A stretch of DNA of 63,900 nucleotides, the filler included, from Hausera hauseri (lineage: Eukaryota), in NCBI GenBank assembly GCA_046269625.1. It is 12 parts of 12 records of this genome, joined end to end, with 100 filler letters (N's around TTAATTAATTAA, not from the genome) between each part and the next. Parts side by side here need not be neighbours in the genome. Positions count along the whole stretch, not along the records: positions 31,346 to 36,482 come from JBJURY010324272.1; 11 more parts are not named here. One strand, 5' to 3'. Each line of letters starts with the position of its first letter. Positions within the stretch are counted from its first letter, which is position 1. This document shows positions 2,585-50,279 of the stretch, piece by piece. The notes under the pieces were generated by a model, which made no database searches, had not been told where the DNA came from, and worked only from the letters and a program-made list of their open reading frames with translations. Both the position numbers and the translations under genes were made by a program.

Positions 2585-2599
2585 TTTGCCGACAGAAGT

Positions 2600-22903: not shown

Positions 22904-25900
22904 CGATATCCTTCACAGGCTTCATAATTCGACCATTTTTTCCTGCATTAATTTACACAAAGCATACCACCAAATTCAGGTGGCTCCAGCAGACATTCCG
23001 ACAATGGCTGTCTAACACCTTTCGGCCTTTTCGAATAATTTTCATGCCTTTTGTCTCCGTAGCGCTTCCCAGACCTTCCAAAGGCATATTGATACAGTTC
23101 TCTCACATATAGACTTTATTTATCCCTATATCGATGATATCCTAATTGCATCATTTTCCTCGAAAGAACACTCCGAGTACTTACGTTTAATTTTCCAGCG
23201 CTTGCACCAAAACAACTTGCAAATTAATTTCGCCAAATGCTTTTTTCCAACATAATATCAACTTCTTAGGACATGTTATTAGTTCCTCCGGACATTCACC
23301 TCAGCCAAAGCGCATCACACAGCTCAAAAACATACAACTACCACGTACATCAACAGAGATGCGTTTTTTCCTCGGAATCTTGCACTTTATTCATAAGTAT
23401 ATTCCACACTGCTCCACTCTAACCGTTCCATTTGTATCACTAAGCTCTGGCAAGAAAAAACAGCTTATTCAATGGACCGCCAAGCTAGTCAACGCTTTCG
23501 ATCACCTCAAAGATAATCTAAAAACCGTCGAAATCCTGGCCTATCCCGATTCCCATGCAGAACTCTTCTTAAACACGGATGCATCCACAACAGCTGCAGG
23601 TTCTGTTCTCCATCAAGTCAAAAATGGATTCCATGACCCATTAGAATTATGTTCTCGAAAATTCACGGCACAAGAGCAAAGATATTTCACCTTTTACAGA
23701 GAGTTGCTTGCAATGGTCCTTGTCATAAAGCACATTAAGCATCTGCTAATTGCACGAACCTTTACAATACAAATGGACCACAAGCCCTTGCTTCAAATTC
23801 TCACCATGAAATTGCCTTCTCCACGTCAGGAGAGTCAAATATCGTATTTGTCAACATTTAATTTTGAAACTAAACACCTAAATGGAGTCGACAATTTAGT
23901 AGCTGACTTTTTGTCCCGATTGGTCAGCTCGACTGATTTTACACCAATTTTCCGTCAATCCAAACTTTAACAAAACCAGCCACCTCCTGACATTATTAAA
24001 TCTTTTAAATCGTGCAAAACCATCGACGGTGTGGCCTTTGACACCTCCAAACCTAATAATTCTAAAGTCATCCTTTCTGAATCGCTTTAAAAAGAAGCAT
24101 TCTACAACATCCATTCGTTGCATCTCCCGGTACCAAGGCTACTTTTCGACTCTTACAAAGCCAAGTAGTATGGCCGTCGATGCGCTCTGACGTGCAGGCA
24201 TGGGTTAGGCAATGTGTGGCATGCCAAAAATACAAAGTTACTAAGCACTTAAAGCTATCACTATATCATTTTCCCTGCACGTCTCGTTTTGAATCTGTCC
24301 ACACTGACCTTGTATGCCCACTACCCTTAGACAACGTCCATCAGTTCATTCTCACAATGATGGACCGTTCCTCGCGATGGCCAAAGGCCGTCCCGTTTCG
24401 GAGAACCAACACAGAAACAATCCCAGACGTTTTCATCCGCACTTGGATCAGCATGTTTGGATCATCTCGCCACATCACTTCGGACCAAGGCCCACAGTTC
24501 GAATTCAACTTGTTTATAGCTCTTGTTAATCAATTGGGAATTAACCACATTCACACGTCACCATATCATCCTCAATCGAATGGCCTTCTCAGAACGCTTT
24601 CGCCGAACGATGAAAACGTCTCTCAAAATCCTTGCTGAGTCCAATCGCAGTTGGACTACTATCCTTCCGTACGTTCTTCTTGGCTGGCGGAACATACCAT
24701 CTACGTCTACAGTCTATTCACCTGCAGAAGCATTATTTGGTACTTCTATCAGACCATTATTCGATCTGGCTGAGCTGGACAATACTCCTACAGACGAAAC
24801 CATACTTCGTTGCGATTAGCAAAGACTCATTTTGTAGACTATTACACGGAAATAAACCTTACATGCCCGATGATCTATATACTGCCAAGTTCGTATGTCT
24901 GAAGAATCAGACGCCACGTGGTTTTCAACCTCAGTATGTTGGACCTTACAAAGTAATTCGTTTACACTCTCACAACATTATTCTCAAGGACGAAAAAGAA
25001 GTAACAGTCCACATCAACAACACTAAACCGGTGTTCTTCAATGACGATACGTCTCCCATCGAAACCACTTTTACACCAACATCTTTACATAACGCGCAGC
25101 AATCCAGCAATTAACCTCCCATCTCTGCTCAGTTCTTTAACCCACTTTTCCCTACTTTTTCTCCCAAGACATCTACTTCAATTTTTACTGACAGTTCGTC
25201 CTCCTTTTTCCCAACCCGATTTTGCACCCTCAAGCCTTTAACACCTCCTCCATCTCCTAGTGACAACTTTCTTTCTCCTGTTACAAGGCCTCCTCCGCCA
25301 GGCACCACTTCGACTTCACCAATCTCTCCATATACCCCTTTCATCATTCAGCCTCTTTCATACCACCTTCCAACTACTTTTCTTCGCCTTCTTCATCTTT
25401 TTTCTCTTTTCCGCTTTGTCCCTTTTCGCCGTCTTCTCTGGCTCTCTCTTTCTCCTTCCACACCTTCCTTATCTTGGGCATTTTCTTTCTCCATTTCTCC
25501 TCACATATCTTCTTTTACCCCTTTCATTTCCGCTTCGCAACTTCCTACTCTCTCTACTTCTATCCTTATCTCTTTTCCTCTCTCTACCACTAACTCTGTT
25601 TCATCTTCCACTTCCACTCTGTCGCCTAATACAATTCCAACTTCTATTTCAAATTTCCTCTCTTCTCATTCATTCTCTACTACACCTCTTGTTAGTCTCT
25701 TGTCTTCAAACACTCTCTTAAACACCTTCAACCATCCATCTACTACAATCTCTCTTCCTACTTCGCCTTCTTCTTCTTCTCTTTTTTCTGACTCGTCTTC
25801 GCATGACGCAACACTTACAACAAAGTCCGATAATGTTTTTCCACAACTTCAAACTCTTCAAGCAAACACATCGCATAAAGACAAAACACGCACAGTCACA

Positions 25901-26320
25901 TGTAGCAAGTATATCAGGGAAAAATCAGCAGAAGGCATCCAGCGTCTTGTTCACACTAAGACCAACTGACATAGATACTTTTTCGTTTTGCGATTTTTTC
26001 TTTCCGTCTCTTACTCTTTATAGTTTTCACTTTGCCACGGAGGGTGATGTGGTGCCCGCAGTAGCCGGTCTCCTTTGACCCATTTGGTTGGGCGCGGACG
26101 GGCGTCCGCTGCCGCCGCGCGGGCCCATAGGCGGGCTCTATCTTCTGCCTCAAAATTTCACAGTCCCTATCCTACTCAAAATATTCGTGCACAAAAAGTA
26201 TTAATTGTGAAATCATCAGAGACAATGAACGAAGCAAAAGCGACGACGTCGCCGAGAGAAAGCCGAAACTAGTCTGTTAAATGCGCAGCATCATTTTCTC
26301 TCAAACAATCACATCAACAA
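22904..26320 (+). mobile_element. Family A copy 3: RT-RH-IN, long S/T/P tail, PPT, 3' LTR (starts 26048, right end uncertain)
   Basis: PYIDDIL, NTDAS, MDHKPL, WVRQCVACQ, TSDQGPQF, YHPQSNG, YVGPYKV; PPT GGAGGGTGA then TGTGGTGCCCGC. Confidence 0.9.
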
Positions 26321-26555
26321 TCAAACCCATTCGAATTCAATGACAAGCAACAATACGTTTACATCTCACTGTCACGGTAACAATCAGATTTTTTACACAC
26401 TATCCGGTATTCCAGTCGAATGCATCGCATTGCAGCTCGAATTCTGTCAGAAACGCGGTTTGTAGCAGGTCAGAATAATCATCACTATTAAGGATCGTCA
26501 AAACCATTTCATGAAAAAGACATTTTTAAATTTGAAACTTCTTTGTTCGGCATAA

Positions 26556-26910
26556 AATGACAACAGCAGTAACAAAAAACGAGGTAGGCTCCTGCGCCGG
26601 TTTACTGAAGGAAGGCTAGTGCCAGAAAATGTTACAGAAAAGTGCAGGTCAGAAGGAAGAAAAGTACAACTGAAATCCAATTTCACAAATTTTAAGTTAG
26701 CATTAGAAAGTCCGTTTCATATGTATGACGTCAAAATCGAAAATAAAACTTTAAGAACAAAGCTTGAACCTTTTACTTAGTTATCAGCAAAAGTAGCAAA
26801 TGGACAGTCATTTTGTTATGACGGTCGTCGGTTGTTTACCACCACGAAATGGAATCAGACGGATATTGAAACGTTTACAGTAAATGATGTGCAAATATCA
26901 TTGAGATTGT
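26556..26910 (+). pseudogene. PIWI/Argonaute N-terminal domain fragment with in-frame stop, cut by the contig end
   Basis: RLVPENVTEKCRSEGRKVQLKSNFTNFKL...FHMYDVKIE...PFT*LSA...FCYDGRRLFTTTK matches the Argonaute N-domain pattern G..(I/V).L..N.F...Y.V...(Y/F)DG..LF; TAG at 26778-26780. Confidence 0.65.
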
Positions 26911-27083
26911 NNNNNNNNNNNNNNNNNNNNNNNNNNNNNNNNNNNNNNNNNNNNTTAATTAATTAANNNNNNNNNNNNNNNNNNNNNNNNNNNNNNNNNN
27001 NNNNNNNNNNAGATACTGGGATCGTTGAGTAGTGGTCAACAGTCGGATTATTTTAATGTGTCCTCCACTCATCAATTCTATAA

Positions 27084-28082
27084 TTAATTTAAATCGGCTT
27101 TCCACGGTCGGCGGTAGATAACCTTTTTTTCCTTGACTTTGATTTCCATTTGTTCCATTACAGTTGGATGAGTTTCTATCTCTCTTATTCCGGCTATGTG
27201 TGTTACTGGTATCTTAAATTTCTCTATCATTCTCTCTACTTGATACCCCACTATGACGTAACCGTATAGACAATGTTCTGCTTCCTCTTGCATTAATTTG
27301 GAATCTTTTCCTTAAATTAACTGTTCCCTTTTTAGTCCGGTTACTTCCGCATAGGTTTCCTGTACTTTCTTTCTTGGGTTAATGATTTTTGAATAGACTT
27401 TGGCCCCGTTTATTTCTCGTATAGATATTTCAATTGGGATATAATTTCCTTCGTCTCCTTCCCCATAATTTATCACGACAATTCTGATATTCCTGTCATC
27501 TGTTACTAGTCTATTTGAGTGTAGATGTGCGTTTTGTTCTTCTTCAGTGGGCCTTTGTCTGAACTCTAATGGCGGCAATGAAATGGTTGTTGTTTCCTCT
27601 TTGGTTATTTCAACCATTAGTTTCACGGATAAGGCAGCTATGCGAAATTCCAACTCATAGTTGTGGTCGAGGAAATCCTTGCTATTAAATACGAAGGTGC
27701 TATATCTACTTTGTCTACCTTGAAATGAGTCCCATTTTTGGTCCTTCAACCGATAATAAATTTCTCCGTCGGCTAGGTCTATGAATAATTTCTGTTCCTT
27801 GTCGATCTTGTAGTGGGCTAGCTTGCGTACATCATATGCTTTCGCATCTCCATCTTCTCGCCATGCATATAAATAAATGGTCCTAGCTTCTTCCGTAGTT
27901 CCCTTAAGACTATTCGGAATGTTATTGACTTTTTCGTATTGGATGAAGGTTTTCCCTTGTAATTCCGTGTTGATCTGCCTGTAAATAGATTTGGAATTTG
28001 GAATCCGGACGGTCACGTATTGTTGCAAGAATCTGTCGATACTGAATCGGCTCGTGTTCATATTGATTTGGTTACTTACCAA
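27084..28082 (-). pseudogene. Accessory ORF with catalytically dead DEDDh (REX4/ISG20-like) exonuclease domain
   Basis: IRIVVINYG...IEISIREINGAKVYSKIINPRKKVQETYAEVTGLKREQL...QEEAEHCLYGYVIVGY follows the REX4/ISG20 pattern but lacks the ExoI D-x-E. Confidence 0.6.
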
Positions 28083-28181
28083 TCTGAAAAAGAAAACATA
28101 AAAGTTAATCTTAAAACAAAGTAGGGCTTTAAACCAAAACCAAGTCTTTGTTTGATGACAGAATAACCTGATCTGTAATTA

Positions 28182-29596
28182 TTAGGTTATTTTATCATAC
28201 GGGTGTACAGGATTTTCCAATCCCCTTAATTCCCATTCTAATCTTTTAGGACGCTTAGAATAATGATTTTTGGCAACTAATCGAAAAACCGCAATTAATA
28301 TAATGAGGACAAACGTTGATAGTACTGCAATGGATACAATCGGTAAGACGGTTAATCCTAGCGGTGCTTTGGTAGTCACTGGAGTTGCAATTTCGTCGTC
28401 CCTATCCGCATATAAGTTCGGCTCTACACGAATTTCGTCTAGGGTACGTAATGTGATAGTTTGGTTTTGCTTATTCTCTGCATGCACTTGTACTATGTAT
28501 TCCGATTGTGGTTTTAGTAAATTGTACTTTGTTTTTTACATGTAGTTTTAAATAATGTTACAATTTGATTATTATACGTTGTTCGACAACTTATGTGTAT
28601 ATCTCAATTTTGTTTCCTTTCTACAAAAAAACACGATTTTAAATCGGTGTACCGAATATCTAATAGGTACGCTTTTCAACTTTGCTTTAGGTATGTTGCT
28701 CGCCGCCTCAATTCGGGTAGTTGGGCTAACCTTAGTGGTTGACTCTTTGGTCGTGGTTTCCACCAAAAATTTCCAAATTCTTTTTTCTTGATAGTAAGTT
28801 CGTAATTGTATACTTGGTTTATTGGGTCGTACCTCGTATAAGTCGAACTTTATTTTGAACTCCTGGTTTGTGGGTAGTTTGCAACAGGGGTGTTGTACAT
28901 CTTCACGAATAGAACAATACCCTATCTTCGGGGTTGGTCCTTTTATTGCTTCGAAGGGGATACTACTTTCTCGACTGACCGTCAGTTCTGTCTGGGCGTC
29001 TATTTGGATGCATCGTTTTCCCTTGTTTACAGAGATTCTCTGGATATTTTCATCTAATAGTTTTATATCGGGGTCAGTGGATAGTAACATTTCATTAGGA
29101 TTTATTCCATAATGTCTGTTCCACGCAGGGATGACTAATTGGAATTGTGGCTTTGTTTCGATGTAAACTTCGGTCGAGTCAGGTAGATATAGGCGATAAG
29201 TAAGATCATAAGTGCGTCCAAAATCTATGTCGCAACACTGCATATAGTCTCTCGGTTCTAAATCGCAATTTTTCACTTCTTTTTTGTTACATCATGTAAG
29301 GCAATTTGAAATCTTCCGAAATCGTGGTGTTGCCTCCAAACCTTAAATCCGACACATACGGAATGTGGTGAGAAATAATGGATTGTCATTGACTGCAATA
29401 ATTTAATATCTTTTCGTTTTTCAACTTCTTCCGGGGTTAATCCTTTCTTATCTGGTTTGTTCCTCGCCTTTATTCCACTTTTCCGAATTCCGTTTACATC
29501 TCTTAGCGTAGATTCATCGTGCCACCATTGAGTTTGTGTTCTCGGAATATAATAAGCAATTAACAATAATGCTAAAACTATTTGAACGTACGATAT
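28182..29596 (-). pseudogene. Type-I membrane protein (signal peptide, two Cys modules, Thr-rich linker, FN3-like domain, TM) fused in frame after integrase
   Basis: Signal-like ISYVQIVLALLLIAYYIPRTQT (29596-29531) in the GPY-containing ORF; CDLEPRDYMQCC and CSIREDVQHPCC; FN3-like YNLLKPQSEYIVQVHAEN; TM IVSIAVLSTFVLIILIAVF. Confidence 0.65.
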
Positions 29597-32500
29597 CGGT
29601 CTAGCAATTATTGAAGAAACTTTTAACTCGCGTTGGCGTAAATTATAACGTTTACTGGGCCGTATCTCTGTCTTGACAACTCTTTGTACTGACACGACTT
29701 CTTTCTTTCCATTTTTGTTGATATATACTGTGGTTGGCGTCGCTCTGGTAACTTCGTACGGTCCTCTGCCTGTACGAGTCAATTTTAGTGAGGTATCTTT
29801 CTTGGCTACTGGATAATGTAGATAAACCCAATTTCCCAGTTCCAAATCATGTGGTTTCGCTTTCTTATCATACTGATTTTTAAACTTCTCCTGATATTAT
29901 TGAGATAACGCCTTAGCGATTTCCCAACACTTTTTCAACCGCATCTGTAGCACTTCTGCAAAATTTTGTTCTAAGTCTTCGGGATTGACCGTGTATGGCG
30001 TCATTCCTAAATCCGTGGGTAACACGGTTCACGTCCATACATCGTGAAAATGGTGTAAATCCTGTTGCTGGATGTGGAGTGGTATTAATAGCAAACTGAG
30101 TTCCTTCTAAAAATTCGTCCCAATCTTTTTGGTCCTTCGCTACTACTGTTGATAGTATGAGTATGACGGTAGCATTCATCCGTTCGACCATTCCATTACA
30201 GTGAGGGTGATATGCGGTGGTATAAATCATGTTCCGACGTTAGCACTTTGGTTCGTAAACTTTTTGGAATAACTATCAATTTCCTTCCTTTCCGTTTGTA
30301 ATATAAATTATCCTCATTGCTCTTGCCATTTAAGACGCAGTATTAATGTCCATGTCTGTGTAAATGTTTCTTTAACTGTCGTCCCTTTGGTATGATATCT
30401 TTTTTAGCAAATTCTATAATCTGCTGAATAATTTTATCCTTTCTTTGTTCTGAGAGGATTTTAATTTCTTTATCCAGTGTTAAGGCACGTTGGCGATCTA
30501 CTATTGCTTCAAGTTGGCTTTTCTTCATTACCGTGATTGCGCTTGTTTTAGTCTTTAATCTCGATAGTGCATCGGCATCTACATGTTTATTTCCTAGCTT
30601 ATACTGGAATTCGATATTGTATCTCGATATTTCTTCAATCCATCGTTAAGTCTGCATGTCGAATTATTTGCCCGGCCTTTTAAGGTGGTAACGGCCTTGT
30701 GATCAGTGACAATTATAATTTTCTGTACGTATACGTAAACGTTGAAGTGGCGAAGTGCTTCTTTTACGGCTAGAGTTTCTAATTCTGTAACAGAATAATT
30801 TTTTTCGGCCTTCTTCAAGGAACGTCCTCCATAAGCAGCAGGATGTTCTAATTTTTTATCTTCTTTTTTCTGCGCTAACTCATATTCAATACCTTCTTTA
30901 TTGGCGTCTGTCTTGATTATAAAGCGTAAGTTAAAGTCTGGGTACCGTAAAACAGGTTTACTTGTTAATATCTTCTTCATCTCATCAAAAGCTTTCTGTT
31001 CGACGTCTGTCCATTTCCATTTATTCCCTTTTTTAAGTAGCCGATATAAACGTTCATTAATTTTCGAATTATCTGGCACATAGGTTGCGTAATATCCGCA
31101 TAGTCCTAGCCAGGGACTTAACTCTTTTTGGTTTTGTGGTGCCATGCAATCTGATATTTTGTTTAATAATGATTTATCTGGTTTCGATCCTCCTTCTCCA
31201 ACTATATGGCCAGGGTAGGATACTGCGTTCTGGGCCCATTTGCATNNNNNNNNNNNNNNNNNNNNNNNNNNNNNNNNNNNNNNNNNNNNTTAATTAATTA
31301 ANNNNNNNNNNNNNNNNNNNNNNNNNNNNNNNNNNNNNNNNNNNNCAAGTGTTGGGAAATAGCCAAGGAATTATCCAGGGAATAGCAATAACAATATAAA
31401 GGGCAATATGACAAAAAGGCTAAACCACACGACCTAGAACCAGGAAATTGGTTTTATGTACATTACCCAGTAGCAAAGAAATGCACGTCTCTTAAACTCA
31501 CCAGAACAGGCAGAGGACCTTACGAGGTTACCAAAACCACACCAACCACAGTTTATATAAACGAAAATGGCAAGAAGGAATTCATATAAGCCAGAGAGTA
31601 GTCAAAACGGAAATAAGGCCAAGTAAGCTTTATAATCTGCGTTCGGGAAAAGCAAAATTGGATTATACGAACAAAGAAAAGAAAACGTCGTCGATAGTGA
31701 TTAGACCAATATCGTATGTACAAACAGTCCTCACCTTATCGTTAATCGCTTCGTATATACCAAAGACAAGGTCGATAACCCTAACCGAAAAACTACAATA
31801 TGCGACAAGACGAAAGGATATGCAAAACTTACAGTCACGATATGGATTGGAGCAAACCATGTGCATGGCTTGAAGCAAGTGAACCTATTCAGAGTCATGT
31901 AAAATTTCAAATAATATTAAGATCCACGATGAAAACATGCGATTTCCCGTACGGAGCTCATAGGAAATGTTGTAATTTGGAACATACCGATACAAATTTC
32001 AAACGTTCTATTATAATCAGTCCGGAGCTCAAGCCTATATAATTACTGAATTCTTAATAAGAATGCCTCAACGAAATGACACGAATCGAGCGAAGACGGA
32101 TAAAATAATCCAAAATACTGACCCATTTAAAAGCTCTTAGATTATACTATTATTGGGATTTCCAAAGACTTAAAGAACCAATGTATTCGAATTGAGACCA
32201 AAATAGAACTGCTAGGAGACAGACAAATTTCTGTCCGATTTATACTACTGAACGCCTCGGTTCCTATTCCGGTGTATTGTTATATTGCACAACGGCGGTT
32301 TACTGCGTTCTGTAGATTACAGTTAGGACACAACTACCAGTTACAGTTCGATCAGTACAACACTTAACCTAAAGAATCGAGTACTCACTTACGAGGATAC
32401 CACCCAAAAATCGGAATATGGAAGCTTCCGTTTCCAACCACTACGAGGAAACCTTACATTGTTCCAAGTACAACTCTCACTACTGCGATCGTCACTTCGG

Positions 32501-33107
32501 ATGAAATGATCGAAAAAAAACTAGGGAGCATACCGGTTAAGATTTTGGCAAAAGTAATAAAATTCTATTTTACGCTGAAGAAACCTTAAATCAAGACGTC
32601 AAAATTGAATGACGCACCCTGCACACCAATCAAATTATAATCCTAAGAAAGAATAGTCAGGAAACCGAATGAAAATCATTACGACCGCAGCATAACTATC
32701 TAATCCGAATCACCGCGAAAGGTAATAAACTTTAAATTTTTATAGTACGAACTCTTGACAACAAAATTGAGGTAATGCGGTATGAAGATCTTAGTACTCA
32801 AAATGCGTTTACTACGAAGGGTTCTATTGAGCCAAACAATTTAACAAAAATAGGTATATTTAGTTTGTCAATTTTCGTTCTTGTCACATTAACGGCGATG
32901 ATTTACCTAGCTTCCAAAAATTGTAATAAACGCGGTGAAAATCGAAATGGAGATAAACGGGTGAAAGGGTGCCGAGACGGACTTTATGATAGCATAACCT
33001 AACAATTACAGATCAGGTTATCCTGTCATCAGACAAAGAAAATTTTTTGCTTCAAAACGATAATCTGTCTTAGGACTGACATTTATTTTTATTTTAGCAG
33101 AATAAGT

Positions 33108-35569
33108 ATGGCCGAAAAGGCGAAGAATTCAGCAATCACCTCCAGTCGTGACATAGACGATTTCCTGCAACAACATGTAACAGCCCTCAAGCCAACATCT
33201 AAAAGCTTATATCGCCAAATTGAAGAAAATCTGAAAAACAAAACATACGTTGAAATCGATCAGGAAAGTAAAATACCAATTGGGTTGAAATGGGGTTTAG
33301 AGGAAAATCGACTGATTCGGTTATACGTAATGCGAAGCTTCAGAGATGCACGAGCATACCTCTTGAGAGATATGATTCCATATGAACCGACACATCAGCA
33401 ATTGTACATACATGTCGCTGATGTAGAAATTCAGCACAGGATCGTAGGAAAATCCTGGAGCACAAAAAAGGGACAACAATGGAAATTTAGCACTTATGAG
33501 TTATGTTGCTATAGTCTTATGAACTATGCCTTGGAATTCAGAATCGCAGAACTTCCAACCAAACTCATGTTCGAAATGACCTGGCGGACAGAAGTAATGA
33601 GACCGCTACCACCATTACTATGCATACAAAATCCTTCAGAATATGAGATAGAACAGAATGGAAAATTTTAAAGGCTAGTTCCAGACGGCCGAAACACTTG
33701 AATTTTAGCCGTGAACTATGGAAAAAAGGATGACGTATGGTATACACCAATCGAAGTTTCTATCCAAAGTACTAAGGGGGAAGAACTTATAAACAAAATA
33801 CTTGCAACTAGTACTATGGTGAAGGATACCTTTCCCGATGTTACCGGAATTATGAAAGTGCAACTCGAAAAAGGGAAAGATTCCTTGGAAATCCAGGAAG
33901 ATAAAAGCCATTGCTATATGGATGTATTGTAACCGGATTTCGAGTACACAAAATGTTAGAAAGACTAGGAGTTAGACAAGACTATATAGCCGGAATTAGT
34001 GAACTGGGTCGAAATCCAGCGGTTTTAAGCCAAGTAGAAAACACCTTAATGAAGAAAAGAGGATGCCTTCTTCCGTCAGCATTACGTGAATAACTGTTCA
34101 AAATTATGCTAGAATCCATGAATGGTGAGCGATTCAGATTTCCTAAATTGATGTCAACTAGTCAACGAACGAGGCTTATAAAAGATATTTATGCCTCACT
34201 ACGAACGGAACATGAGTGGAAACCTAGGAACCCTACACAAAATGTGATGCCAGACAACAATCCAAGAATTTTATTACAAAAATTCCGAAAAGTATTTAAC
34301 AAATACCCAACATATAGACAAGTTGAGCCTCAAGGACACAACAGATGTCAAGTAACCGTTCACAACAGCTCAGTTAGAACGGCCTGCACCCAACACAAAC
34401 CGTCTACCAGCTAAGCTCGAAATGAAATGGAAATGGTCCTCAAAAGAACAATATAAAGTCTAAAACCGAATATCAGAAAAGTTCTAAGAGGACAAAAGAT
34501 GAAAACTTCCTTTTTGGAGTACATTAGCAAGAAGAGAAGTAAAACCAGTAAGAACCTGAACGAAGAAATGAAACCATCTGCTAACCTTCTCACGCTCTAC
34601 GAACAAGCAAACGGATCTAAGGACGAACCCAAAATAGCGGAAGTCGAAAATTCCGACGACATCAAGATGAGAACTGCTGATACAAAGCCCCGTAAGACAG
34701 AAGTAAACGTTCTTCGGAAGAATTGGGAAGAAGATGAACCGATCATAGTCATGGAATTTGGCCAAGTAAAGGAATATACCAGAATGCTCGTCATGGCCGA
34801 ATATTACAGCAAAGGCAAGATCAAGGAAACCGTATTCTACGTATCCACTGTTCCTAGGAGAATCGTAAGTGGGAATGGATACGCTCGGGAGGACATAACC
34901 ATTGGCAAATACTTAGTCCCAATATTCCAGTCGAAAAACGGTACAAATAGATTAACCATTCCGGTAGATACCCAAGTCCGAATACAATTAAAAAGGCAAT
35001 ATAAGAAAACCGGAATACCAGACTTAGACCAACAAGAAATCGTTGAATGGACGTTAGTCACCGTGTCAGATAACCCCAAGAAAAGCTCTATAGATCCGAA
35101 ACAAAAACGACTATATGGATACCTATATCAAGATAAAAAGGGACTAGTATTTGAACGAATAGAAGTTGACGAAAACCTCGTAGACATAGACGAAGGGGCG
35201 AAAGAAGAGTGCCTTGTTTGTGATGCCAATCTCTACCAAGGATTCGTAGTGTTGGATAATAAAGACTGTACCCACAAGTACTGCCGGTACCGTTTAGAAA
35301 CGTGGACCCTTAAAAATGGGAGGACGACCTGCCCCGTATGTAGAGCTGAGGCCAAAAGACTGAGGTATTACGTCAATGGAATAAATAAAAAGGTAGTGGA
35401 GATATTGCCCCAAAAACCCACTACATCCTACCACTTTGACCCGCAATCACCGCAAGACGAATCGTATTCGGAAGCGGACCTACGTGAACGAATGAACCGA
35501 TTACGCGGCACCTCTTCTGACGGAGTGGGCATATCCGAGAGTGCCGTTCAGGGAGGAGAAATGTTGTAA
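33108..35569 (+). pseudogene. ~820-aa accessory ORF: unknown N-domain, dead DEDDh domain (~33680-34220), unknown domain, C3HC4 RING finger
   Basis: ORFs 33108 and 33711 share one frame; 33911, 34106 and 34499 share a second, so one frameshift plus a few stops. RING CLVC...CTHKYCRYR...W...CPVCR (one Cys lost) at ~35210-35345. Confidence 0.7.
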
Positions 35570-36039
35570 GAGATAGATTAAAGAAACTATGTACAAAGTG
35601 TAAATAACCACAAACGAAAGCGAAACTAGAAATGGAAATTGAAACTGAATTAGTGTTAATTCCAAATGCAATCGATGTAATTATTTAGACACAGAAATCT
35701 GATAGAAAATTGCATGCAAATCAGCAGAGAAATAGGAATTCCAGTCACCAGAAATTAAATAAAAAAAGAAATTCTGAACAAATTGCATGAAATTCTCTCT
35801 CACCGAAAACTCAGTCGCTATTAGACGTATAAATACTGCAGCTTAATGTACAAGAGGGAGAGTGATACACTGTCGCGAAATTTAATTCAGTAGCTGAAGA
35901 AAAGACTTAAACCGACTTGATATTGATTGATTCTTGTGCTGATATTCTACTGTTATTGAGTATATTTTATTTGTTAATAAATTGCCTTGTTTCAATTTGC
36001 ATAGTTTTCCGTCGCTCCTTACGAGGATCTAGTACTACA
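35562..36039 (+). repeat. 3' LTR of family B (~478 bp)
   Basis: Preceded by purine tract AGGGAGGAGAAA; TGTTGTA...TACTACA termini (6/7 inverted match); TATAAATA at ~35828 and AATAAA at ~35975 in the expected order. Confidence 0.7.
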
Positions 36040-36582
36040 TTAAAGTTAAACTGAAATTAAACTTCATAGCTAAGTCGAGAATTTTCTAAACTACGCAAGG
36101 CACAGCACGCAGTACACGCATCCTAAACTAGTGCAAACATTCTAACGAGAACGTTGGAACTTATCTGCTAAACCAATATTGTTAAAACTGAGTTTCATAA
36201 TTGTTATAGTTGGGTGTTGAATAGGACCCACTTTCAACTACTGACGTGTTCTTTTAATTATCGATTTATGGTGGTTTATTCACGCAATTAATATCATCTA
36301 ATATTTGGCGTATAGTCTGTGATCACTCATGCAATTGTTAATTAGACTAATCCGTTTTAGATTGACAGAACTTTTTCGTAGCACTATACAAAGAATATTA
36401 AAAAACACTGATTCGAGAAAAGAAGCGAATTTTTTGACAAAGTTCAAAATTCCTATTAGTAGTTGGGGAGACTTGAACATCTNNNNNNNNNNNNNNNNNN
36501 NNNNNNNNNNNNNNNNNNNNNNNNNNTTAATTAATTAANNNNNNNNNNNNNNNNNNNNNNNNNNNNNNNNNNNNNNNNNNNN

Positions 36583-37534
36583 AGCGGCCTGTGTGAGCCG
36601 CGTAGTAGCGCACCGGGACAGGCAGCTTGCCCCGCCCAGCGATGTCGATGAACCGCTGTGTGCGGGTCTCCTCGAGCGTAGACTTCACCCCGAGCCGTGC
36701 GGCAGCCAGCGCCTGCACCTGCGGGTCGTCATCTTCCAGCAGGTCCTTCATGCCCTGATCGCTCTTAGCCAGTGCGTAGGTCATGTTGCCCGTGGTGGGG
36801 CTGATCTTCATGGGGCAGGGCACCCCGAACTTACCGAGCAGTGCGGCAAACTTCGGGTTCGACATGAGGTCGGCCTTGTCCTCGACGCCAGCAGACTTGA
36901 GCAGGTCTTCCTTCATCATCTGCGTCTTACTGAGGTGCTCCTCGAGCCGCTCCCGGTCCAGCTCCAACGTAGGCTCAGTGAACATACGCAGGGTCAGGTC
37001 GATCAGCTTGAGCTCCGACTTCGGGAACCCCCGAGACAGCATGATGTTGAAGATGTCGTAGGTCAGGTCTACGTCATTGACACAGTAGCGCCCGTAGGCC
37101 GACAGCTCTTCCGGCGTGAAGTCGTTGCGGCGTTTCCCCTTGGCGTCCAGCACCTCGGTGCCTTTCTCCCCTACCCCGTAGTTTTCGGCGAGAGCCTTGA
37201 GGCTGGCACTCTTCTCGACGCCGTGGATCGCACGAGCCATGCAGAGCGTATCGAACAGCACCTTCGGACGGATGCCGAACCGCCAAGACATGATCGCACC
37301 ATCGAACATCATGTTGTGCGCCAGCACCGCAGAGTTGGCCCAGTCGTATGATGCCAGTGCTTGCTTGATCGCACCGTGCGTCCCGGTGATCCACGCAGTC
37401 TCGCCGTCGTTGACCTTCACCCCCACCCCAATGACTTGGAAGCGAGGGTCACGGATATATTCTTCCGTGGTGATCTTAGACAGCGAGTAGTCTTTGTCGT
37501 AGTAGGTCTCCGTGTCTATAGTAATTACGTCCAT
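36583..37534 (-). CDS. Phage family-A DNA polymerase, N-terminal part (3'-5' exonuclease + start of polymerase domain), truncated by contig end
   Basis: ExoI IDTET, ExoII AHNMMFDG, ExoIII YCVNDV, phage PolA motifs KSTLEETRTQRF and YYAAHTGR. Confidence 0.9.
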
Positions 37535-38082
37535 CAGAGAAAATTCCTACCCTTGTTGATTTCAAGCAGGTGCTTAGCCTGAGAGATTGCATCGTCGAGG
37601 GCGTTGTGGTGCGTACCGCTACGTTCCATAGGAACGTCAGGATACATGGATTTCACGGTGCGGTAGCACCGATCCTTCCAGAAGGGCCACGGTGGCGTCA
37701 TACCCACACGCTTGTAGGTTTCGGCGAGGATCGTGTTATCGAAGCTCGCACCGTTGCCCCATACACCGTCCAGCATCAAATCCACGGCGTCCGAACCGCC
37801 GCTTACCTCGCTAAACCATGCGTCGAGTTTGAGCAGTGCGGTCACCACTTCTACACCTTTGGTATCAAAGGCGGCACGTGCTTCGCTGCTTTGCTTCATC
37901 CACCACAGAACCGTGCTCGGGTCGATCTTTGCGCCGGTGGTAACCGCGCTCTGCAGGTCCACGTTCAGATAAAAGTGTTGCCACTTCCAGTCCGGGTCCA
38001 CGTCAAAAGACACAGCCCCGATGGCGATAATCGGTGCGTCCGGGCGGGTTCCCATAGTCTCAAGGTCGATCATGATGTGCAT
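37534..38082 (-). CDS. DEDDh 3'-5' exonuclease (Rv2179c/exonuclease VIII-like)
   Basis: MIDLETMG...IIAIGAV...WGNGASFDNTIL...DRCYRT...HHNALDDA. Confidence 0.9.
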   Translation of the reverse strand: MHIMIDLETMGTRPDAPIIAIGAVSFDVDPDWKWQHFYLNVDLQSAVTTGAKIDPSTVLWWMKQSSEARAAFDTKGVEVVTALLKLDAWFSEVSGGSDAVDLMLDGVWGNGASFDNTILAETYKRVGMTPPWPFWKDRCYRTVKSMYPDVPMERSGTHHNALDDAISQAKHLLEINKGRNFL

Positions 38083-38093
38083 GATGGTTCTCC

Positions 38094-38705
38094 TTACTCC
38101 CCGTCAGCCAGCGGTGTGTCGAGGTGGTCGTAGAGCACGTCCACGTTCTTGGCGTAGTAGACTGCGCTGGCGTTCTGCTGGTCACCCCGGGCATAGACCT
38201 TGACGCAGGCTACGTCGCCGCTCTTGTGCAGGGTGTGCAGGCGACCACCCACCTTCTGGATCAGGTCGGGCATACCCGACAGCGGCAGGCTGGCCTTGGC
38301 GATGGCATGGGTCAGCTCATTGACCGACCACGGGCGCGGCTCCTTCATCAGGGTATCCATCACCCCAACGAAATCGGTGATGTGGGGTTTGGGCGGGGCA
38401 GCCGGTGCAGCAGGGGCCGGTGCGGTGTTAGTCGTGTCCCTAACAATGTCGTCCACCCGGGTAGCGACCTCGACGCGCACAGCCCGCCAGCGGGAGGCGT
38501 AGTGCGCCGTGTGCGGCGAAGCAAAGTTGTCTGTGGCCCAGACACGGATCATGTCGCCGACGATAAGGTTAAGGCGCTCTACCTCACGTGCAGGGATAAA
38601 GACTTGCTCATTGTCTGGGGTGATGGCGAAGCCCAAGCCCGCACGGGCGGTGTAGTTGTAGGTGGCTTCGATCTGTCTCAGATCGGCAGGAGTGAAGTAG
38701 TTCAT
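38094..38705 (-). CDS. Phage hypothetical protein (possible OB-fold/cold-shock-like N-terminus + winged helix)
   Basis: GLGFAITPDNEQVFIP resembles a cold-shock RNP motif; Pro/Ala linker; fits the operon packing. Confidence 0.7.
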   Translation of the reverse strand: MNYFTPADLRQIEATYNYTARAGLGFAITPDNEQVFIPAREVERLNLIVGDMIRVWATDNFASPHTAHYASRWRAVRVEVATRVDDIVRDTTNTAPAPAAPAAPPKPHITDFVGVMDTLMKEPRPWSVNELTHAIAKASLPLSGMPDLIQKVGGRLHTLHKSGDVACVKVYARGDQQNASAVYYAKNVDVLYDHLDTPLADGE

Positions 38706-38707
38706 GG

Positions 38708-39241
38708 TTATTTCTTGTCCTCTTCCATTTGAATTTCACGGCACTCTCCGGCGATGGCGGAGTAGGCAGCCGCGTCAGTGTAGTTGTCTGGGTGGTAGCC
38801 GTATTGGAAAGAGCGGGTCATCTTTACCAAGGTCATCAGCCACGCAACGTCCTCGGCCTTGAGGTTTACCCGGTAGCTCCCGTCGGCGGTCACCTCGATG
38901 CAGCCCCACTTAGTGTTGATGTAGGCGTTCCACAGCGCTGCACAGTCCGACAGGTTGTCAAAGGGCGGGCCATAGGACTTGTTGCGGTCTCCCCCTGTCA
39001 GCTTGATCGCGGTCTCTAGGGTCTGCACCCGTGTGGGCTTCACCTCACGCTGCCGCTCTTCCCGCTCAAACACCTCACGCGGGGTGCCGATGCGGTCGAT
39101 GCAGCGCTGGGCCATCTCGATAGGGACATCACAGTTGAGCCCGACCTCGATGGCATCCGCCGTGCGGTTGTTCAGAAGGTAGGCCCAGATACGCCGCTCT
39201 TCTTCGGAAATCTCTGTCATTCGCATCTCCATTTCATACAC
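38708..39241 (-). CDS. DUF6378-like phage protein with N-terminal HTH-like segment
   Basis: LETAIKLTGGDRNKSYGPPFDNL..AALWNAY...EDVAWLMTLVKMTR...HPDNYTDAAAYSAI. Confidence 0.8.
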   Translation of the reverse strand: MYEMEMRMTEISEEERRIWAYLLNNRTADAIEVGLNCDVPIEMAQRCIDRIGTPREVFEREERQREVKPTRVQTLETAIKLTGGDRNKSYGPPFDNLSDCAALWNAYINTKWGCIEVTADGSYRVNLKAEDVAWLMTLVKMTRSFQYGYHPDNYTDAAAYSAIAGECREIQMEEDKK

Positions 39242-39250
39242 GCATTAGCG

Positions 39251-39658
39251 TTATTTATCGCCGTTTGACGTGGTTTTCAAGTATTTATCACGCTGCATTT
39301 TCTCGAGCGCCCGCTCGATTGCAGCAGGGCTTGCCGACCAGACAGCGCCGGTCTTCTTCTTTTTCGGCGGCGTGTCGGGGATGTTGTCCTCATACACGAT
39401 GCTAGGTCTCCGCCTAGCAGATGGCATCTGTTTAGCTCTGTCGGTCATTTCAGCAATCCCCCCCTTTGCCAGCGCCTGCGCATAACGATCCCGAAAGGAC
39501 GGCGGACTGTCCTGCACTATAGCCGCAATCCCCGTGCGAATTGCGATGTCGGCTTGGTTGTGAAAACTGCCGTTCCGGGCTTCGGTAAATGCGAGCAACA
39601 TGTCGAAGGTTTCTGTCAAGAGCCACACCTTGATTTCTTTTGTTGAGATGTCGGTCAT
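39251..39658 (-). CDS. Phage hypothetical protein (135 aa)
   Basis: Start MTDISTKEIK at 39658 with GGAGGG RBS, ATGA-coupled to the upstream gene. Confidence 0.65.
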   Translation of the reverse strand: MTDISTKEIKVWLLTETFDMLLAFTEARNGSFHNQADIAIRTGIAAIVQDSPPSFRDRYAQALAKGGIAEMTDRAKQMPSARRRPSIVYEDNIPDTPPKKKKTGAVWSASPAAIERALEKMQRDKYLKTTSNGDK

Positions 39659-39786
39659 TCCACCCTCCACAAATCCGTCGCCGGGTCGCTGTAGAGCGTG
39701 ACGCAGGTGCGGCTGGCATTCGTGACCCTGCCGCTGATCTGGTCCGCCACGGCTACGCACCAACCTTTCAAGGGCATTGACCTCAT
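39655..39786 (-). CDS. Small phage protein (43 aa), absent from the ORF track
   Basis: MRSMPLKGWCVAVADQISGRVTNASRTCVTLYSDPATDLWRVE*; ATGA overlaps at both ends exactly fill the gap. Confidence 0.6.
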   Translation of the reverse strand: MRSMPLKGWCVAVADQISGRVTNASRTCVTLYSDPATDLWRVE

Positions 39787-40286
39787 TCCCCGCCCTCCGC
39801 GATGCGCCGCAGGGCGGCTTCCAGTTCATACATTCCACGGATCACACCGTCAGACTGATACCAATAGCTGTCGCGGACAGTCCGCGCCGCCTCCACCAGC
39901 GCCTTTATCTCCGGCAGTTCCAGCGCCTCGGCCAGCGTGGGGGCGGGCTTGATCCTTTCGATCATCCAAGAGACGAAATCCGCCTCGCCGCGTATGAAGG
40001 CGGCGGCCTGTTCGTGCGTCCCGCCATGCCGCAGGGTGTTGACGCGAATGGTCGCGGCAATCGTGTTGAGGTGCAGCACCTCGGCCTCGGCCTTGTCGAG
40101 CATGTCGCGGACGGCCTTGGTGTCCAGCGCCAACGTCAACGTGTGCGTGGGGGCGGGCTTCACGGCGGGGATGTCTACAATGCGATCTGCAATGACATTC
40201 CCTCCAAATTTCGCCATTTCGAGGCTGTCGGCTTCATGCACAGCGTCCAGCGCATCCCCGCGCCGGATCAGATCGTTGTCACTCAT
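39783..40286 (-). CDS. Phage hypothetical protein (167 aa)
   Basis: Start MSDNDLIRRGDALDAV with AAGGAG RBS, a common phage early-gene N-terminus. Confidence 0.7.
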   Translation of the reverse strand: MSDNDLIRRGDALDAVHEADSLEMAKFGGNVIADRIVDIPAVKPAPTHTLTLALDTKAVRDMLDKAEAEVLHLNTIAATIRVNTLRHGGTHEQAAAFIRGEADFVSWMIERIKPAPTLAEALELPEIKALVEAARTVRDSYWYQSDGVIRGMYELEAALRRIAEGGE

Positions 40287-40614
40287 GGCTCTCTCCTTTG
40301 ATCTCTGCGAGGGCGGCGCGAGAAATCTCCGCAGCCCTGTGTCCATTCGGCGTGTCTCCAAATTCGCGGACGATTTGCAGGTGCCCATCCCGTAGCCGCG
40401 CCACCTCGGCCTTCTGCACGTCCAGATCGGCCATGAACGCCCGCATGGCCTCCTGCGTCTCAAGATGCATTTCGCGTTCGGCGGTGAGGTCGGCCTCGGC
40501 CTCCACCTTCTCGCGGGCCAGCCGCTCGATCAGGTTGGCGGCGGCGCACATCGCTGTATAAGCGGCGGGATCACGGCAAAAGGTGCCGCGCAAAGTTGCC
40601 ACCATATCCGCCAC
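40279..40614 (-). CDS. Phage coiled-coil hypothetical protein (5' end may lie beyond the contig)
   Basis: AANLIERLAREK... coiled-coil; overlaps the downstream start. Confidence 0.6.
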   Translation of the reverse strand: MADMVATLRGTFCRDPAAYTAMCAAANLIERLAREKVEAEADLTAEREMHLETQEAMRAFMADLDVQKAEVARLRDGHLQIVREFGDTPNGHRAAEISRAALAEIKGESHE

Positions 40615-40755
40615 CTCCGCATCTAGCGCGGGCTGCGGCGACAGGGGAAGGGCGCNNNNNNNNNNNNNNNNNNNNNNNNNNNNNNNNNNNNNNNNNNNNT
40701 TAATTAATTAANNNNNNNNNNNNNNNNNNNNNNNNNNNNNNNNNNNNNNNNNNNN

Positions 40756-41655
40756 GTAATTTGATTGAGCTTATGTGATGGCCGTGATTTTTTGTCGTCG
40801 TGCAACATTCTCTGCGTGCAATGATTGAAGCTGATTATCAATGTTTGATATTGTGTTTTGATTGTGTATTGTTGGTGTTTTCAGTGATGCTGCAATTGTG
40901 GGTTGAGTTTGACTGTGTAGTATATCAAAGCTTTTGTCAGCCAACTGTGCCAATTTTTCCAGTGACGCACTGTCCTCAACGACAGTTAGAAGAGCTCGAA
41001 TTTCCTTGGGCAAGGATTGCAGAAAGTAGCGTCTCAAGACGAGCAAGCTATTGACTTTAAGAAACAGATCAGTGAGTTTGTGTGAATTGAACCAGCGGGC
41101 GTGAAAATCTAACCAGGTACGAGGTGAGCTTTGATTGTCAAGGAAAAAATCTACGTATTTGAAAGTAGTGTTGGTGGTGGATTTGGTGAGATGGACGATT
41201 CGAATTGTATGTGTCTTTTTCGTTTCGGAAGTGTCGGAATTAATATCAGAGCCACCAAAAAGTCTGGGTGTGATGCGAATAATGGAGGAAACAGATCGGA
41301 AAGGCATGGAAAGAGGTGAATCGTCTGTTGGATGAAGAAGAAAACCGTTGAGATGGAGGTAGAAGTTTTTAAAAGATAGTTGTTTTGTGATGAATGAATG
41401 GAGGTATTGTGATGTTGTGTATGCGTATGTGTAATATGCATATAGATGTTTATTTTGGTAGAAAAAGGAAACGAAAGTGTGCACATTGGTGTCAGAGGCA
41501 TGATTTGGTGGCCCCGAGCTCCACGTATCCTGACCTACGACCCTGGAACTAGGAACCGGGAATGGAACCGCACCACGGTGGCACTGACATATTAGAGGTC
41601 GAAAAGCCTCACTAAAATAGTGCTGTATGAATTGCAGACTCTTGAATAATTTCAA
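40756..41655 (-). pseudogene. gag: Family A copy 4: leader-UBL-gag with internal deletion
   Basis: UBL at 41251-41481 ending IIRITPRLFGG, then YVDFFLDNQSSPRTWLDFH...LRRYFLQSLPKEIRALL...LEKLAQLADKS. Confidence 0.85.
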
Positions 41656-42689
41656 TCGGAACTGTTTCCTTTTTTATTGGGCTTTTAAAATATATCAACA
41701 GGAGCTCGAGCTCATGAGAATTGGGTAACTCTTCAATAGGTTCTAATTCGACAACATATGTAAGAAAATACTCAGCATCTCTTATTAATTCGATCACAAA
41801 ATTTGCAAAATTTCCAGAAGAATGCTTTGAAGACAACGTTGTACTACTTAAAACGTTCGACACAGAGTTTCGGCAAAAATATTTTTGCAAAGTGATCAGT
41901 CTGAAAAGCATCTGATGAGGCATGATAAAAATTGATCCAACATCCGAAAATATTTCCATTTGTCCTTCTAATTAGTTCAATGAGAAGTTCTTCCGTCGCC
42001 ACAATATCGTCGTTAATGATGAAGTTATCATCCGAGTGAAAAACCGTTTCGAAACACTATTCTAGATTTGAATTCAATTTCGTTATATCTGCATCACTTA
42101 AAGCGAGAGGTTTCCTTCGCGTATTGCTGATGGATGCCAAACCAAAGGATAAGTTTGCAATTTTGAAAGATTTCGAATTTTTTAAGAAATGATTAGCCAG
42201 ACTTAAGAGTTTTTTGAATATTTTAAACCACCAAAATCGAACACCGAAGCAGTCTTTTGTTGGAGTTCCCGAAAAATGTTGTCAAGTGATATTGGAAATT
42301 TGTTTTGAAACGATATTAACATGCAAAGTATGCTTTGTAACGATTTACTAAATATAGTTTCAGACAATTCAATTAAAGTTGAATATCTAGAATATTTGAA
42401 AAGCAATGGAAAATGTCTGCATGACAAACTGTGGACAGCCATGAAGAATTCTGTATTTTCTATACATAAATAACTAGCATCAATAAATAAATTGATCGTT
42501 TTCAACATGTATATATTGTTGTATAAAATAACTAAAGTTATCCGAATTCTTCAAAGAAATCAAATTCCCGATAAGCGAGAACAAACCCCAACACACGGCA
42601 AAAGACGGGCAAGGCTACCGTGCCCGATTGTTCCCGGTCAAAAAGCTAGTCCGCCGCAACACCCGGGGCACCACAATAAAAATATACAA

Positions 42690-43400
42690 AACTGATCCAA
42701 TTTTGAACTATCTTAGAAAAAAATTCAACTTTTTATACGTATCAGATATGGAAATATCGGTAGATGAGTCTCTTGCTATGGAAAGTATGATTATCATGGA
42801 AACAGTACATTCCATCAAAAAGAAGCCGATTTGGTGTTAAATTGTAGGTAAATCAGGATATAAGTAATTTCCTTATATACAGGTTAAAATACGCAGTATG
42901 GTTGAAAATATCTAGAAGAAAAAGGAATAAGTCGTATTACTTTTGAATTGTGCCACGATTTATTGGATATAGGATATAGGTTATTTATCGATAATTGGTA
43001 TACTAACATTGATCTTGCTGAGAAATTGTGCAAGAAAAAAACCGATGTTGTAGGAACAAAGCGGAAGAATAAAAGAGGAATACTATTTGATATTACATCT
43101 AGTCTTTTGAAAAATGGTGAGTATATTACTAGGTACATAGACAAAATAATGATTGTAAAATGGAGAAGCAAAATGTATGTAATTATATTGAGTACTATCC
43201 ACCATCTAGGCTTATTGAAAGGCATTTTGCAGATTACATACCATCCGACATTTTTAGAATAAACGTAATCAAGACATACGAAATATGTTACTCAAAAGGT
43301 TTTAGGAAAGAAGCGAGATTTTGGTGTACAGACTGTAGTGTTGCTTGGTGTATGCCGCGTTGTCTCAAAATCCATAATACTTTTAGGGTTTCTTACTTGA
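42690..43400 (+). mobile_element. Degenerate piggyBac (PGBD4-like) transposase
   Basis: ISVDESL, LFIDNWYT, VVGTKRKNKRG, C-terminal Cys-rich FWCTDCSVAWCMPRC. Confidence 0.8.
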
Positions 43401-43779
43401 TTCAGAACCCGAATTGCAAAGAATAACCAAAATCATAAAAATCAAACACAACAAGAAATAACAATTCAATCCGAATTCCGAGAATTCGAACCGAATCAAA
43501 AACGAAACGTACTGACATTTATTCGTGATTCAAAAATAACAATAACATATATAGATGAGAATTCAAGGGAGATCACAAAATGTTGAAGCAAATAGCACCA
43601 GCAATATCAGTAAAAGAAACTTGCTAAAATGGTATGTGTGGTTGTGATTTTATGCTGTTTTGTAATTTAAAATTTTTACGGTTTGTACACAATAAGTACT
43701 GCTTGAAGGAGTAAACTGACAGTCTTTTGCTTGAATTCCATTCAAAAATTAGCAAGAAAGTGTCGTGCTTACAATGTAG

Positions 43780-49264: not shown

Positions 49265-50040
49265 TAACTTTTGCTCAGCTCGTCACGCGCTATCGATATC
49301 ACTCGGTCCGAAGTCCATTGCTCGACCTCCTTTTCGGCCGGAGGGAGGTCATCTAAAAAATTTTAGTGAAATGTTCGAAATAGCCAATCAGGTGGGGAAA
49401 AGTGGTTAACGGACCAATCAGAGAAGTGCGGTGGAGTGGACACTTCTACCTACTATCATATTGACATAGACTTTTAACATATGATTTTTAACATAGTTTT
49501 TACAGTTCGTTTGTTCGTTCGGTTGCATTTTTCACCTGGATCCTTTCGTCTGATCGTGAGGCGGCTATATTATGAAATGCTCAACTTTTGATGGGCTACA
49601 TGCTCAACCCATTTCCACTGCCGTTTGATTTGTTTAAGGGGAAATTTTTCCCCTTCGAAATTTTCCCATTGACTTTTCCCCATGTTCCCATGGTCTGATT
49701 GAGTTGCAGCAGTGTTCATTGAATTCGCCGACATCGATTTACCTTTTGCAAACATTTTCTCAGTGCTAGCAACATGTTTCTCGTTACGCGTGACGCATTT
49801 CCTGTTTTGCTTGTTCCTCTTCTAGCGTCTCTCCCTTACATTTCTGTAAGCCGCACCGCTATTAACTTTTGCTCAGCTCGTTGAGCTCTACCGATTTGAG
49901 TCGGTCTAATGTCCAAAGCTTTCCCCCGGGGAGGGGGTTGAGAAAATTCGCGAAATGTGTGCATTGACCAATGAGATGCGGAGAATTGGTCGATTGACCA
50001 ATCAGAGAAGTGGGGTAGGGCTGACAGTTCTACCTACTTA
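49265..50040. repeat. Two diverged ~180-190-bp direct repeats with paired CCAAT motifs
   Basis: TAACTTTTGCTCAGCTCGT...ACCAATCAGAGAAGTG...TTCTACCTACT at ~49265-49454 and ~49863-50038. Confidence 0.7.
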
Positions 50041-50279
50041 CATGGCATGGTGCGCCATCTTATTGTAGGTACCATGGATTACTATTAGCAAAATAAATCT
50101 TCAGCTTGCGGAACTATTCTATACCTAATAACGTTACAATAAATTCCCTAATTCATGGACCCTTCACATTCATGAAGTCGTCCCGAATCCTGTCATGAAA
50201 TGCAACCCAAAATATAACTTTAATGGGTGTTTAACTGTTTGAACTATGTAACAGTGGTTAGTTTTTCACCCAGGAACCG

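Follow-up and report, generated by a model that had tools for sequence, protein, structure and literature searches.

In the bdelloid LTR retrotransposons Juno and Vesta, the third open reading frame (ORF3) is a captured exonuclease of the DEDDy type and is intact (PMC5408684; published accounts are cited here from partial text). Among host proteins, PML carries a RING together with a pseudo-exonuclease that binds nucleic acid (PMC13659232, PMC10123124). CERV, of the Caenorhabditis elegans element Cer1, is a spliced accessory protein (PMC10309623), and AGO1 is the target of a polerovirus suppressor that has an F-box-like motif (PMC6593998). The counter-measures of animal LTR retroelements to small-RNA and RNA-decay surveillance remain largely open, with few accessory proteins that have recognisable domains. 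In the main text of a survey of metazoan errantiviruses, as far as its partial text extends, the words 'RING', 'accessory' and 'exonuclease' do not occur (PMC13524379).

Here we describe an accessory gene of a Ty3/Gypsy element found in a window of 63,900 nucleotides, filler included, from Hausera hauseri (assembly GCA_046269625.1). Its predicted protein places a dioxygenase-fold domain and a REX4/ISG20-type nuclease, both without their catalytic residues, ahead of a C-terminal RING, and we hold this architecture and the pseudo-enzyme status, taken together, with high confidence.

Host element and gene order

The window is made up of 12 contigs of 4–8 kb linked by 11 spacers of the form N44-TTAATTAATTAA-N44 (for example 31246-31345 and 36483-36582); it is a pseudo-scaffold of unplaced contigs, in which adjacency across spacers has no meaning. 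Two copies of the accessory gene, A and B, and a putative ubiquitin-like domain (UBL) therefore sit on three different contigs, at 31346-36482 (+), 27011-31245 (-) and 57676-63900 (-) respectively. The contig of copy A begins in the C-terminal tail of a Gypsy integrase (31346..31607, +), which carries a motif that we take to be GPY and is 82% identical in amino acid sequence to that of copy B over 77 codons. From there the order is that of the copy B contig, where the accessory gene comes after RT/RH, integrase and a membrane-protein ORF and runs into the contig end. The RT-RH-IN order by which Ty3/Gypsy elements (Metaviridae) are recognised is present in copy B, and copy A is assigned to the same group because its integrase tail links it to copy B. 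The RT of the third contig has Ty3 RT as its best match (E 4.7e-61) and is 87% identical to the copy B RT where the two overlap, with dS 0.70. Copy A, copy B and the third contig represent three related, distinct Gypsy families, and we read the accessory gene as that of an envelope-type Ty3/Gypsy retroelement.

An earlier interpretation of this DNA, referred to below as the sequence-only reading, had credited the element with two ubiquitin-system modules, the second being a UBL at 62914-63138. The short domain concerned (62866-63105, -), whose look we take to be ubiquitin-like, starts an ORF that leads into a glycoprotein. The proposed UBL gave no Pfam ubiquitin match, its best UBL-bearing PDB match had E 0.46, and it lies on the third contig, at the RT divergence given above; the claim of two modules was therefore abandoned. 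The glycoprotein on that contig is a Monjiviricetes-type fusion protein (PF24664, E down to 1.8e-24) encoded between a presumed gag and protease, and a survey, in its partial text, reports no clear case of a Gypsy element having captured such a glycoprotein (PMC10084718). Elsewhere in the window, contig 36583-40655 has 60% GC and phage-like genes (a PolA-type exonuclease, a Rv2179c-like exoribonuclease and DUF6378) and is probably not from the host genome. A 416-aa ORF at 18767-20017 (+), in which both an HxH and a P-loop-like motif occur, presumably resembles a rolling-circle Rep; Pfam and PDB gave it no support. Fragments of another, unrelated Gypsy family, with RT, RH and integrase matches and a long S/T/P-rich tail after the integrase, occupy 22904-26910 (+), 49265-57575 (-), 1-7807 and 40756-45007.

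Downstream of the integrase, translations and tblastn to copy B delineated an interrupted ORF encoding a type-I membrane protein in copy A (31700..33002, +, start approximate), with its counterpart in copy B at 28182-29700 (-). The copy A product has a hydrophobic leader, a Cys-rich part, a T/S-rich stalk and a transmembrane segment near 32850. We take these ORFs to have an FN3-like look; no family in Pfam or PDB matched them, and an attachment protein is possible. The non-coding stretch that follows (32985-33100, +, against 28199-28088, -) is 79% identical between the copies. A conserved stem-loop is predicted over the membrane-ORF stop codon (32986..33029, +), with the same stem in both copies and 27 of 28 cells paired; the two copies showed no covariation or compensatory change in it, and an Rfam search of the window returned 0 matches. 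A branch-point-like CTGAC, a pyrimidine tract and an AG (33074..33097, +), with an equivalent tract in copy B, would probably serve as the splice acceptor of the accessory mRNA, and a GT at 33017 with the AG at 33096-33097 would delimit a possible intron of ~81 nt upstream of the gene. Copy B has a GTAAGT donor-like site four bases past the acceptor.

At the other end of the gene, a polypurine tract (35550..35561, +) underlies the last codons and adjoins a 3' LTR-like segment of 478 bp (35562..36039, +; TG...CA, TATA at 35828, AATAAA at 35976). No second LTR was found in the window, the contig of copy A not including the 5' end of the element, and the LTR call is thus based on these motifs.

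The accessory gene and its uninterrupted relative

The accessory gene lies between the membrane-protein ORF and the 3' LTR. Copy A (33108..35569, +) contains five in-frame stops (33669, 33699, 34091, 34412 and 34454) and one frame change near 33910-33916, by which we class it as a pseudogene. Copy B (27011..28061, -), also broken, takes in the N-terminal domain and the greater part of the pseudo-exonuclease before it ends with its contig at 27011; the two copies are 41% identical (E 1e-61). A homologue search with the 3' two-thirds of copy A, over 5,225 candidates, found a single protein, P0004, of 870 residues and uninterrupted (38% identity, E 6.6e-106). Both halves of copy A align in order with P0004, which has the same final eight residues; at the protein level this suggests that the P0004 gene likewise runs over a purine tract into the start of an LTR. 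In copy A the stop codon (35567-35569) falls just past the purine tract and the LTR-opening TG, so that the gene ends inside the LTR-like segment, as the sequence-only reading had held. A further homologue search, with P0004 residues 55-440, returned P0004 alone.

A profile search of 1.84 billion representatives gave 50 proteins; the 30 that matched through the RING only were dropped and the other 20 match the exonuclease region, with 7 more added by a second search. The five catalytic columns could be read in 26 proteins: 13 are intact, of which 12 belong to the family and one is a host-like REX4 outgroup, 11 are degenerate and 2 partial. Members of the family, 12 of them intact and 11 degenerate, combine a dioxygenase-fold domain with a REX4/ISG20-type nuclease. 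Intact members, among them P0012, P0014, P0025, P0037, P0055 and P0057-P0061, are ~500 aa long and consist of the dioxygenase-fold domain and a DEDDh nuclease; Pfam misses most of them. Several independent losses of catalysis were considered and not adopted: trees, from which P0053 (a multi-domain match) and P0062 (a C-terminal fragment) were left out, ask for 3-4 changes, yet placing the degenerate members in one clade is compatible with the AU test (p 0.377), and long branches meet. Searches of open-licence PMC and bioRxiv papers found neither this domain combination nor the parent family described; unannotated elements of this kind may be present in Repbase or in the supplementary element tables of PMC13524379.

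The pseudo-exonuclease domain

The nuclease domain occupies 33693..34222 (+) in copy A. A profile built from 17 family members matched ISG20L2 (E 1.4e-26), ISG20 (E 2.9e-19) and SDN1 (E 2.2e-12). A structural model of P0004 was obtained from an alignment and is confident for residues ~55-415 only (a single-sequence model reached pLDDT 31); with this model Foldseek returned ISG20 as the top match (E 4.4e-8) and VIA-align gave ISG20 a Z of 20.0 (rmsd 2.5, 161 residues aligned), the next entry having Z 15.3. As modelled, the domain is a DnaQ-like RNase H fold closest to ISG20, and together with the profile this upholds the REX4/ISG20-type DEDDh fold proposed in the sequence-only reading.

The catalytic residues D, E, D, H and D, at 33708, 33714, 33953, 34151 and 34166, are all replaced: copy A has A, N, M, M, R there and P0004 has A, N, M, L, C (0 of 5 retained in each). 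Copy B has V, N and M at the three positions alignable in frame (0 of 3), and its last, out-of-frame residues also lack the His and Asp. Loss of the acidic ligands in both copies, first noticed in the motifs AVNYG (33708-33722), STSQRTRLIKDIY (34154-34192) and, in copy B, VINYG (27476-27462, -), is thus borne out. At ExoI both acids are indeed gone, but the register had been set two residues off: the Asp corresponds to Ala in copy A or Val in copy B and the Glu to Asn, rather than to Asn and Gly.

Recognition of the domain was also assessed with an HMM trained on the 12 catalytically intact relatives alone, against 300 shuffles per piece (239, 228 and 221 of which gave a score). Copy B scored 64.4 bits and the two pieces of copy A 11.4 and 12.1 bits, the best shuffles reaching 4.6, 4.4 and 2.4. 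The pieces in the window are recognised far above their shuffles, and the likeness is more than chance. Pfam did not detect the dead exonuclease in the window copies or in P0004; PHROGs and NCBIfam gave weak DnaQ-type matches, for P0004 only.

The N-terminal domain

A domain missing from the sequence-only reading precedes the nuclease. The first ~150 residues of copy A (33150..33584, +) correspond to a double-stranded beta-helix domain in the model of P0004 (residues 50-205), with 45% identity between the two sequences, and the domain can be aligned across 20 family sequences, intact and dead. Over P0004 residues 60-210 the model has pLDDT 80-95 and shows a double-stranded beta-helix core with an N-terminal extension. 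Its best structural matches were Ofd2 (Z 9.9, 138 residues aligned, rmsd 3.9), vCPH (Z 9.2) and OsALKBH1 (Z 9.1), values that are middling, tied within 1 and drawn from a single 870-residue model, and that do not separate subfamilies. Foldseek matches of the domain also included dioxygenases, cupins and plant-virus replicases, the last of which carry AlkB domains.

The HxD/E...H iron triad is absent in 17 of the 20 N-terminal domains, including those of copies A and B and P0004, and in the other three the pattern falls at positions not shared across the family. An AlkB profile, narrow in that it was built from 81 closely related bacterial sequences, gave a probability of 0.3-0.5% and a score of 15.8, where 30 shuffles reached up to 15.1. 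The ESM Atlas returned no usable match for this domain or for the exonuclease domain. The model thus suggests a 2OG-Fe(II) dioxygenase fold without catalytic residues, AlkB-like at best.

Selection between the copies

Between copies A and B identity is 53-69% at codon positions 1 and 2 and 33-43% at position 3, in the N-terminal domain and the dead nuclease alike, on a protein-guided alignment that favours positions 1 and 2 and without a shuffled control. In the exonuclease dN is 0.45-0.54 and dS 1.6-2.8. The codon-position pattern points to purifying selection on the accessory gene, the dead domain included. Since the uninterrupted P0004 has the same dead site, catalytic loss predates the decay of copies A and B, and shared losses and codon-position constraint together mark the exonuclease domain as an old pseudo-enzyme. 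The earlier view of a pseudo-enzyme rather than decay is upheld in this way, and the question it had raised, whether intact copies retain the DEDDh residues, is answered by the 0 of 5 in P0004.

It is very unlikely that the gene is functionless cargo, either a decayed captured nuclease hitch-hiking with the element or a nuclease with a rebuilt active site. Such a reading would fit the broken state of both window copies, and the ORF3 copies of rotifers show no clear departure from neutrality (PMC5408684, partial text). Against it are the uninterrupted 870-aa frame at ~40% identity, the Asn and Met conserved at two of the replaced catalytic positions in three lineages, and the saturated third codon positions; nor was an alternative acidic cluster found at the aligned catalytic positions.

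Amino acid sites have changed ~four times faster in the accessory gene (dN 0.45-0.57) than in the tail of the integrase (dN 0.12). Divergence of this order, frequent in host-facing proteins, would suit a protein-only decoy or substrate receptor, in which the dead folds, having given up contact with nucleic acid, mimic host RNA-processing enzymes, bind the partners of these and bring them to the RING for degradation. The neutral charge of both folded domains (24 K+R and 24 D+E in the exonuclease region of P0004) agrees with this idea, as do the apoptosis and ubiquitination domains of planarian Burro elements (PMC6431247, partial text). However, divergence is equally fast in the membrane-protein ORF (dN 0.60), so it is not specific to the accessory gene, and dead DEDDh domains described so far often still bind nucleic acid (PMC5408684, PMC13659232, PMC10123124). 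We regard a protein-only role as a serious rival reading, though not a likely one.

Linker and RING

The pseudo-exonuclease is followed by a basic, poorly conserved linker (34223..34780, +), which is probably disordered (32-33% identity to P0004, low pLDDT). K/R clusters occur in the linkers of both full-length sequences, in copy A at 34526-34543, and might act as a nuclear localisation signal. They would also suit a Rev- or CERV-like factor, which would bind the genomic RNA of the element in unspliced form inside the nucleus and help its export or packaging, with the RING as a dimerisation or adaptor module rather than an anti-silencing weapon; the conserved stem-loop just upstream of the gene could be the binding site. 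That stem-loop is without covariation, though, an active-looking nuclease in 12 relatives would be an odd start for an export factor, and the protein has no domain in common with CERV, whose domains are G-protein-like and M (PMC10309623, partial text). An export factor of this kind is a serious rival reading, though not a likely one.

Beyond the linker lies a conserved pre-RING domain (34781..35167, +; 56% identity to P0004 over 134 residues), which lies outside the confident range of the P0004 model and gave no Pfam or PDB match. Homology of this domain to the C-terminal tails of other family members was considered and rejected: an HMM of six tails had no match there, its best score being 0.9 bits, outside the pre-RING region, with shuffles up to 6.7.

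A C3HC4-type RING follows at 35210..35341 (+), represented by two sequences, that of P0004 and the damaged one of copy A (62% identity between them). All eight zinc ligands are present with RING spacing in P0004, which scores 30.8 bits against PF00097 (cut-off 21); copy A has seven of the eight, with Arg at the sixth, and at 16.2 bits stays below the cut-off. The RING has a Trp in its helix and a P-x-C-R end, marks of E2-binding RINGs. No B-box was among the 24 Pfam families listed, and the RING is C-terminal, unlike the N-terminal RING-B-box-coiled coil of PML and TRIM RBCC proteins. A RING motif was found in 1 of 25 proteins screened, several of them fragments, from which we conclude that the RING was added in this lineage and that the family normally works without it. 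The sequence-only reading had joined this RING to the pseudo-exonuclease, and P0004 confirms that both reside in one protein. In copy A the last exonuclease motif and the RING are in the same frame, as it had stated, but two stops are crossed between them. The RING recurs, complete, in P0004, but not in the family at large.

Proposed function

The family ancestor would have had two domains, the dioxygenase fold and an active REX4/ISG20-type 3'-5' exonuclease. In the present lineage the five catalytic residues would have been lost while selection kept the nuclease fold, and a further domain and the RING would have been added. The accessory gene is probably expressed from a spliced mRNA, to judge from the acceptor motifs. 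We propose that the two dead enzyme folds hold RNA without cutting it, perhaps the 3' end or the RNP of the element's own transcript, while the RING, on its flexible linker, would ubiquitylate nearby host decay or silencing proteins, with the outcome that the RNA of the element is protected. This full mechanism, an RNA-binding adaptor with E3 activity, is our preferred reading and is put forward tentatively, at somewhat less than an even chance. The sequence-only reading's proposal of an RNA-end-binding or decoy domain tied to an E3 ligase, as a candidate suppressor of small-RNA or innate defence, is likewise conjectural, and the exonuclease region of P0004 is charge-neutral. It draws support from the PXL of PML, a dead DEDDh domain beside a RING that binds nucleic acid (PMC13659232), and from the exonuclease and AlkB ORFs known to have been captured by Gypsy elements (PMC5408684, PMC9289625), all in partial text. 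Against it stand the neutral charge of both folded domains, a family that mostly lacks the RING, and a dioxygenase fold drawn from one model with middling Z values and without AlkB profile support.

A more specific version of the adaptor, an RNA-recruited ligase, is speculative and we think it unlikely. Here the dead AlkB-like domain would read a base modification as a self or non-self mark, the dead ISG20-like domain would cap the 3' end, and the RING would destroy piRNA, siRNA or decay effectors. If true, this would be the mirror image of host PML, derived from a mobile dioxygenase-fold and nuclease family whose active members would still be trimming RNA. With three recognisable domains, and with relatives in nature that include active as well as dead forms, the accessory protein makes binding, nuclease and ligase activities each testable on natural proteins.

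Relation to described systems

ORF3 of Juno and Vesta, like the accessory gene, is a separate 3' ORF of a Gypsy-type element with a captured DnaQ-like 3'-5' exonuclease fold. It is DEDDy/RNase D-like and intact and has no RING, a word absent from the paper, whereas the accessory gene combines a dead REX4/ISG20-type DEDDh domain with a dioxygenase fold and a RING (PMC5408684). PML-I resembles the accessory protein in having a RING and a dead DEDDh fold in one chain, and the two families each include active and dead members (PMC13659232, PMC10123124, partial text). PML-I is, however, a host restriction factor with a TREX-like fold and an N-terminal RBCC, whereas the accessory protein is element-encoded and ISG20-like, with its RING at the C-terminus; the P0004 model gives ISG20 Z 20.0 against Z 13.1 for Plex9.1. 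We consider the two convergent and not homologous as a whole.

The AlkB/2-ODD ORF of orchid Ty3/Gypsy elements is likewise an extra Gypsy ORF with a 2OG-dioxygenase fold, and encodes an active m6A demethylase that acts on RNA and is near plant AlkB (PMC9289625, partial text). Unlike it, the accessory N-terminal domain lacks the metal triad, and its sequence shows no detectable similarity to AlkB. CERV shares with the accessory gene a large ORF situated between pol and 3' LTR and a pseudo-enzyme domain; its domains are otherwise different, and its function has been shown, whereas that proposed for the accessory protein is inferred (PMC10309623, partial text). Burro, the giant planarian Gypsy elements, carry ubiquitin-related accessory domains and resemble the third contig in that their envelope gene stands between gag and pol; their domains are in one polyprotein, with no exonuclease described in the partial text, whereas the third-contig glycoprotein is of the Monjiviricetes type (PF24664) (PMC6431247).

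The REX4, ISG20 and ISG20L2 exonucleases are alike in fold and profile, but the accessory domain has all five catalytic residues replaced and is accompanied by extra domains. By its catalytic residues, as read from the sequence, the accessory protein is neither a REX4/ISG20 nor an AlkB enzyme. By analogy it may work at most like the dead nuclease of PML or like CERV, and it belongs to neither. Captured-enzyme accessory ORFs of LTR retroelements are already known; none described in the papers searched combines a dead nuclease, a dioxygenase fold and a RING.
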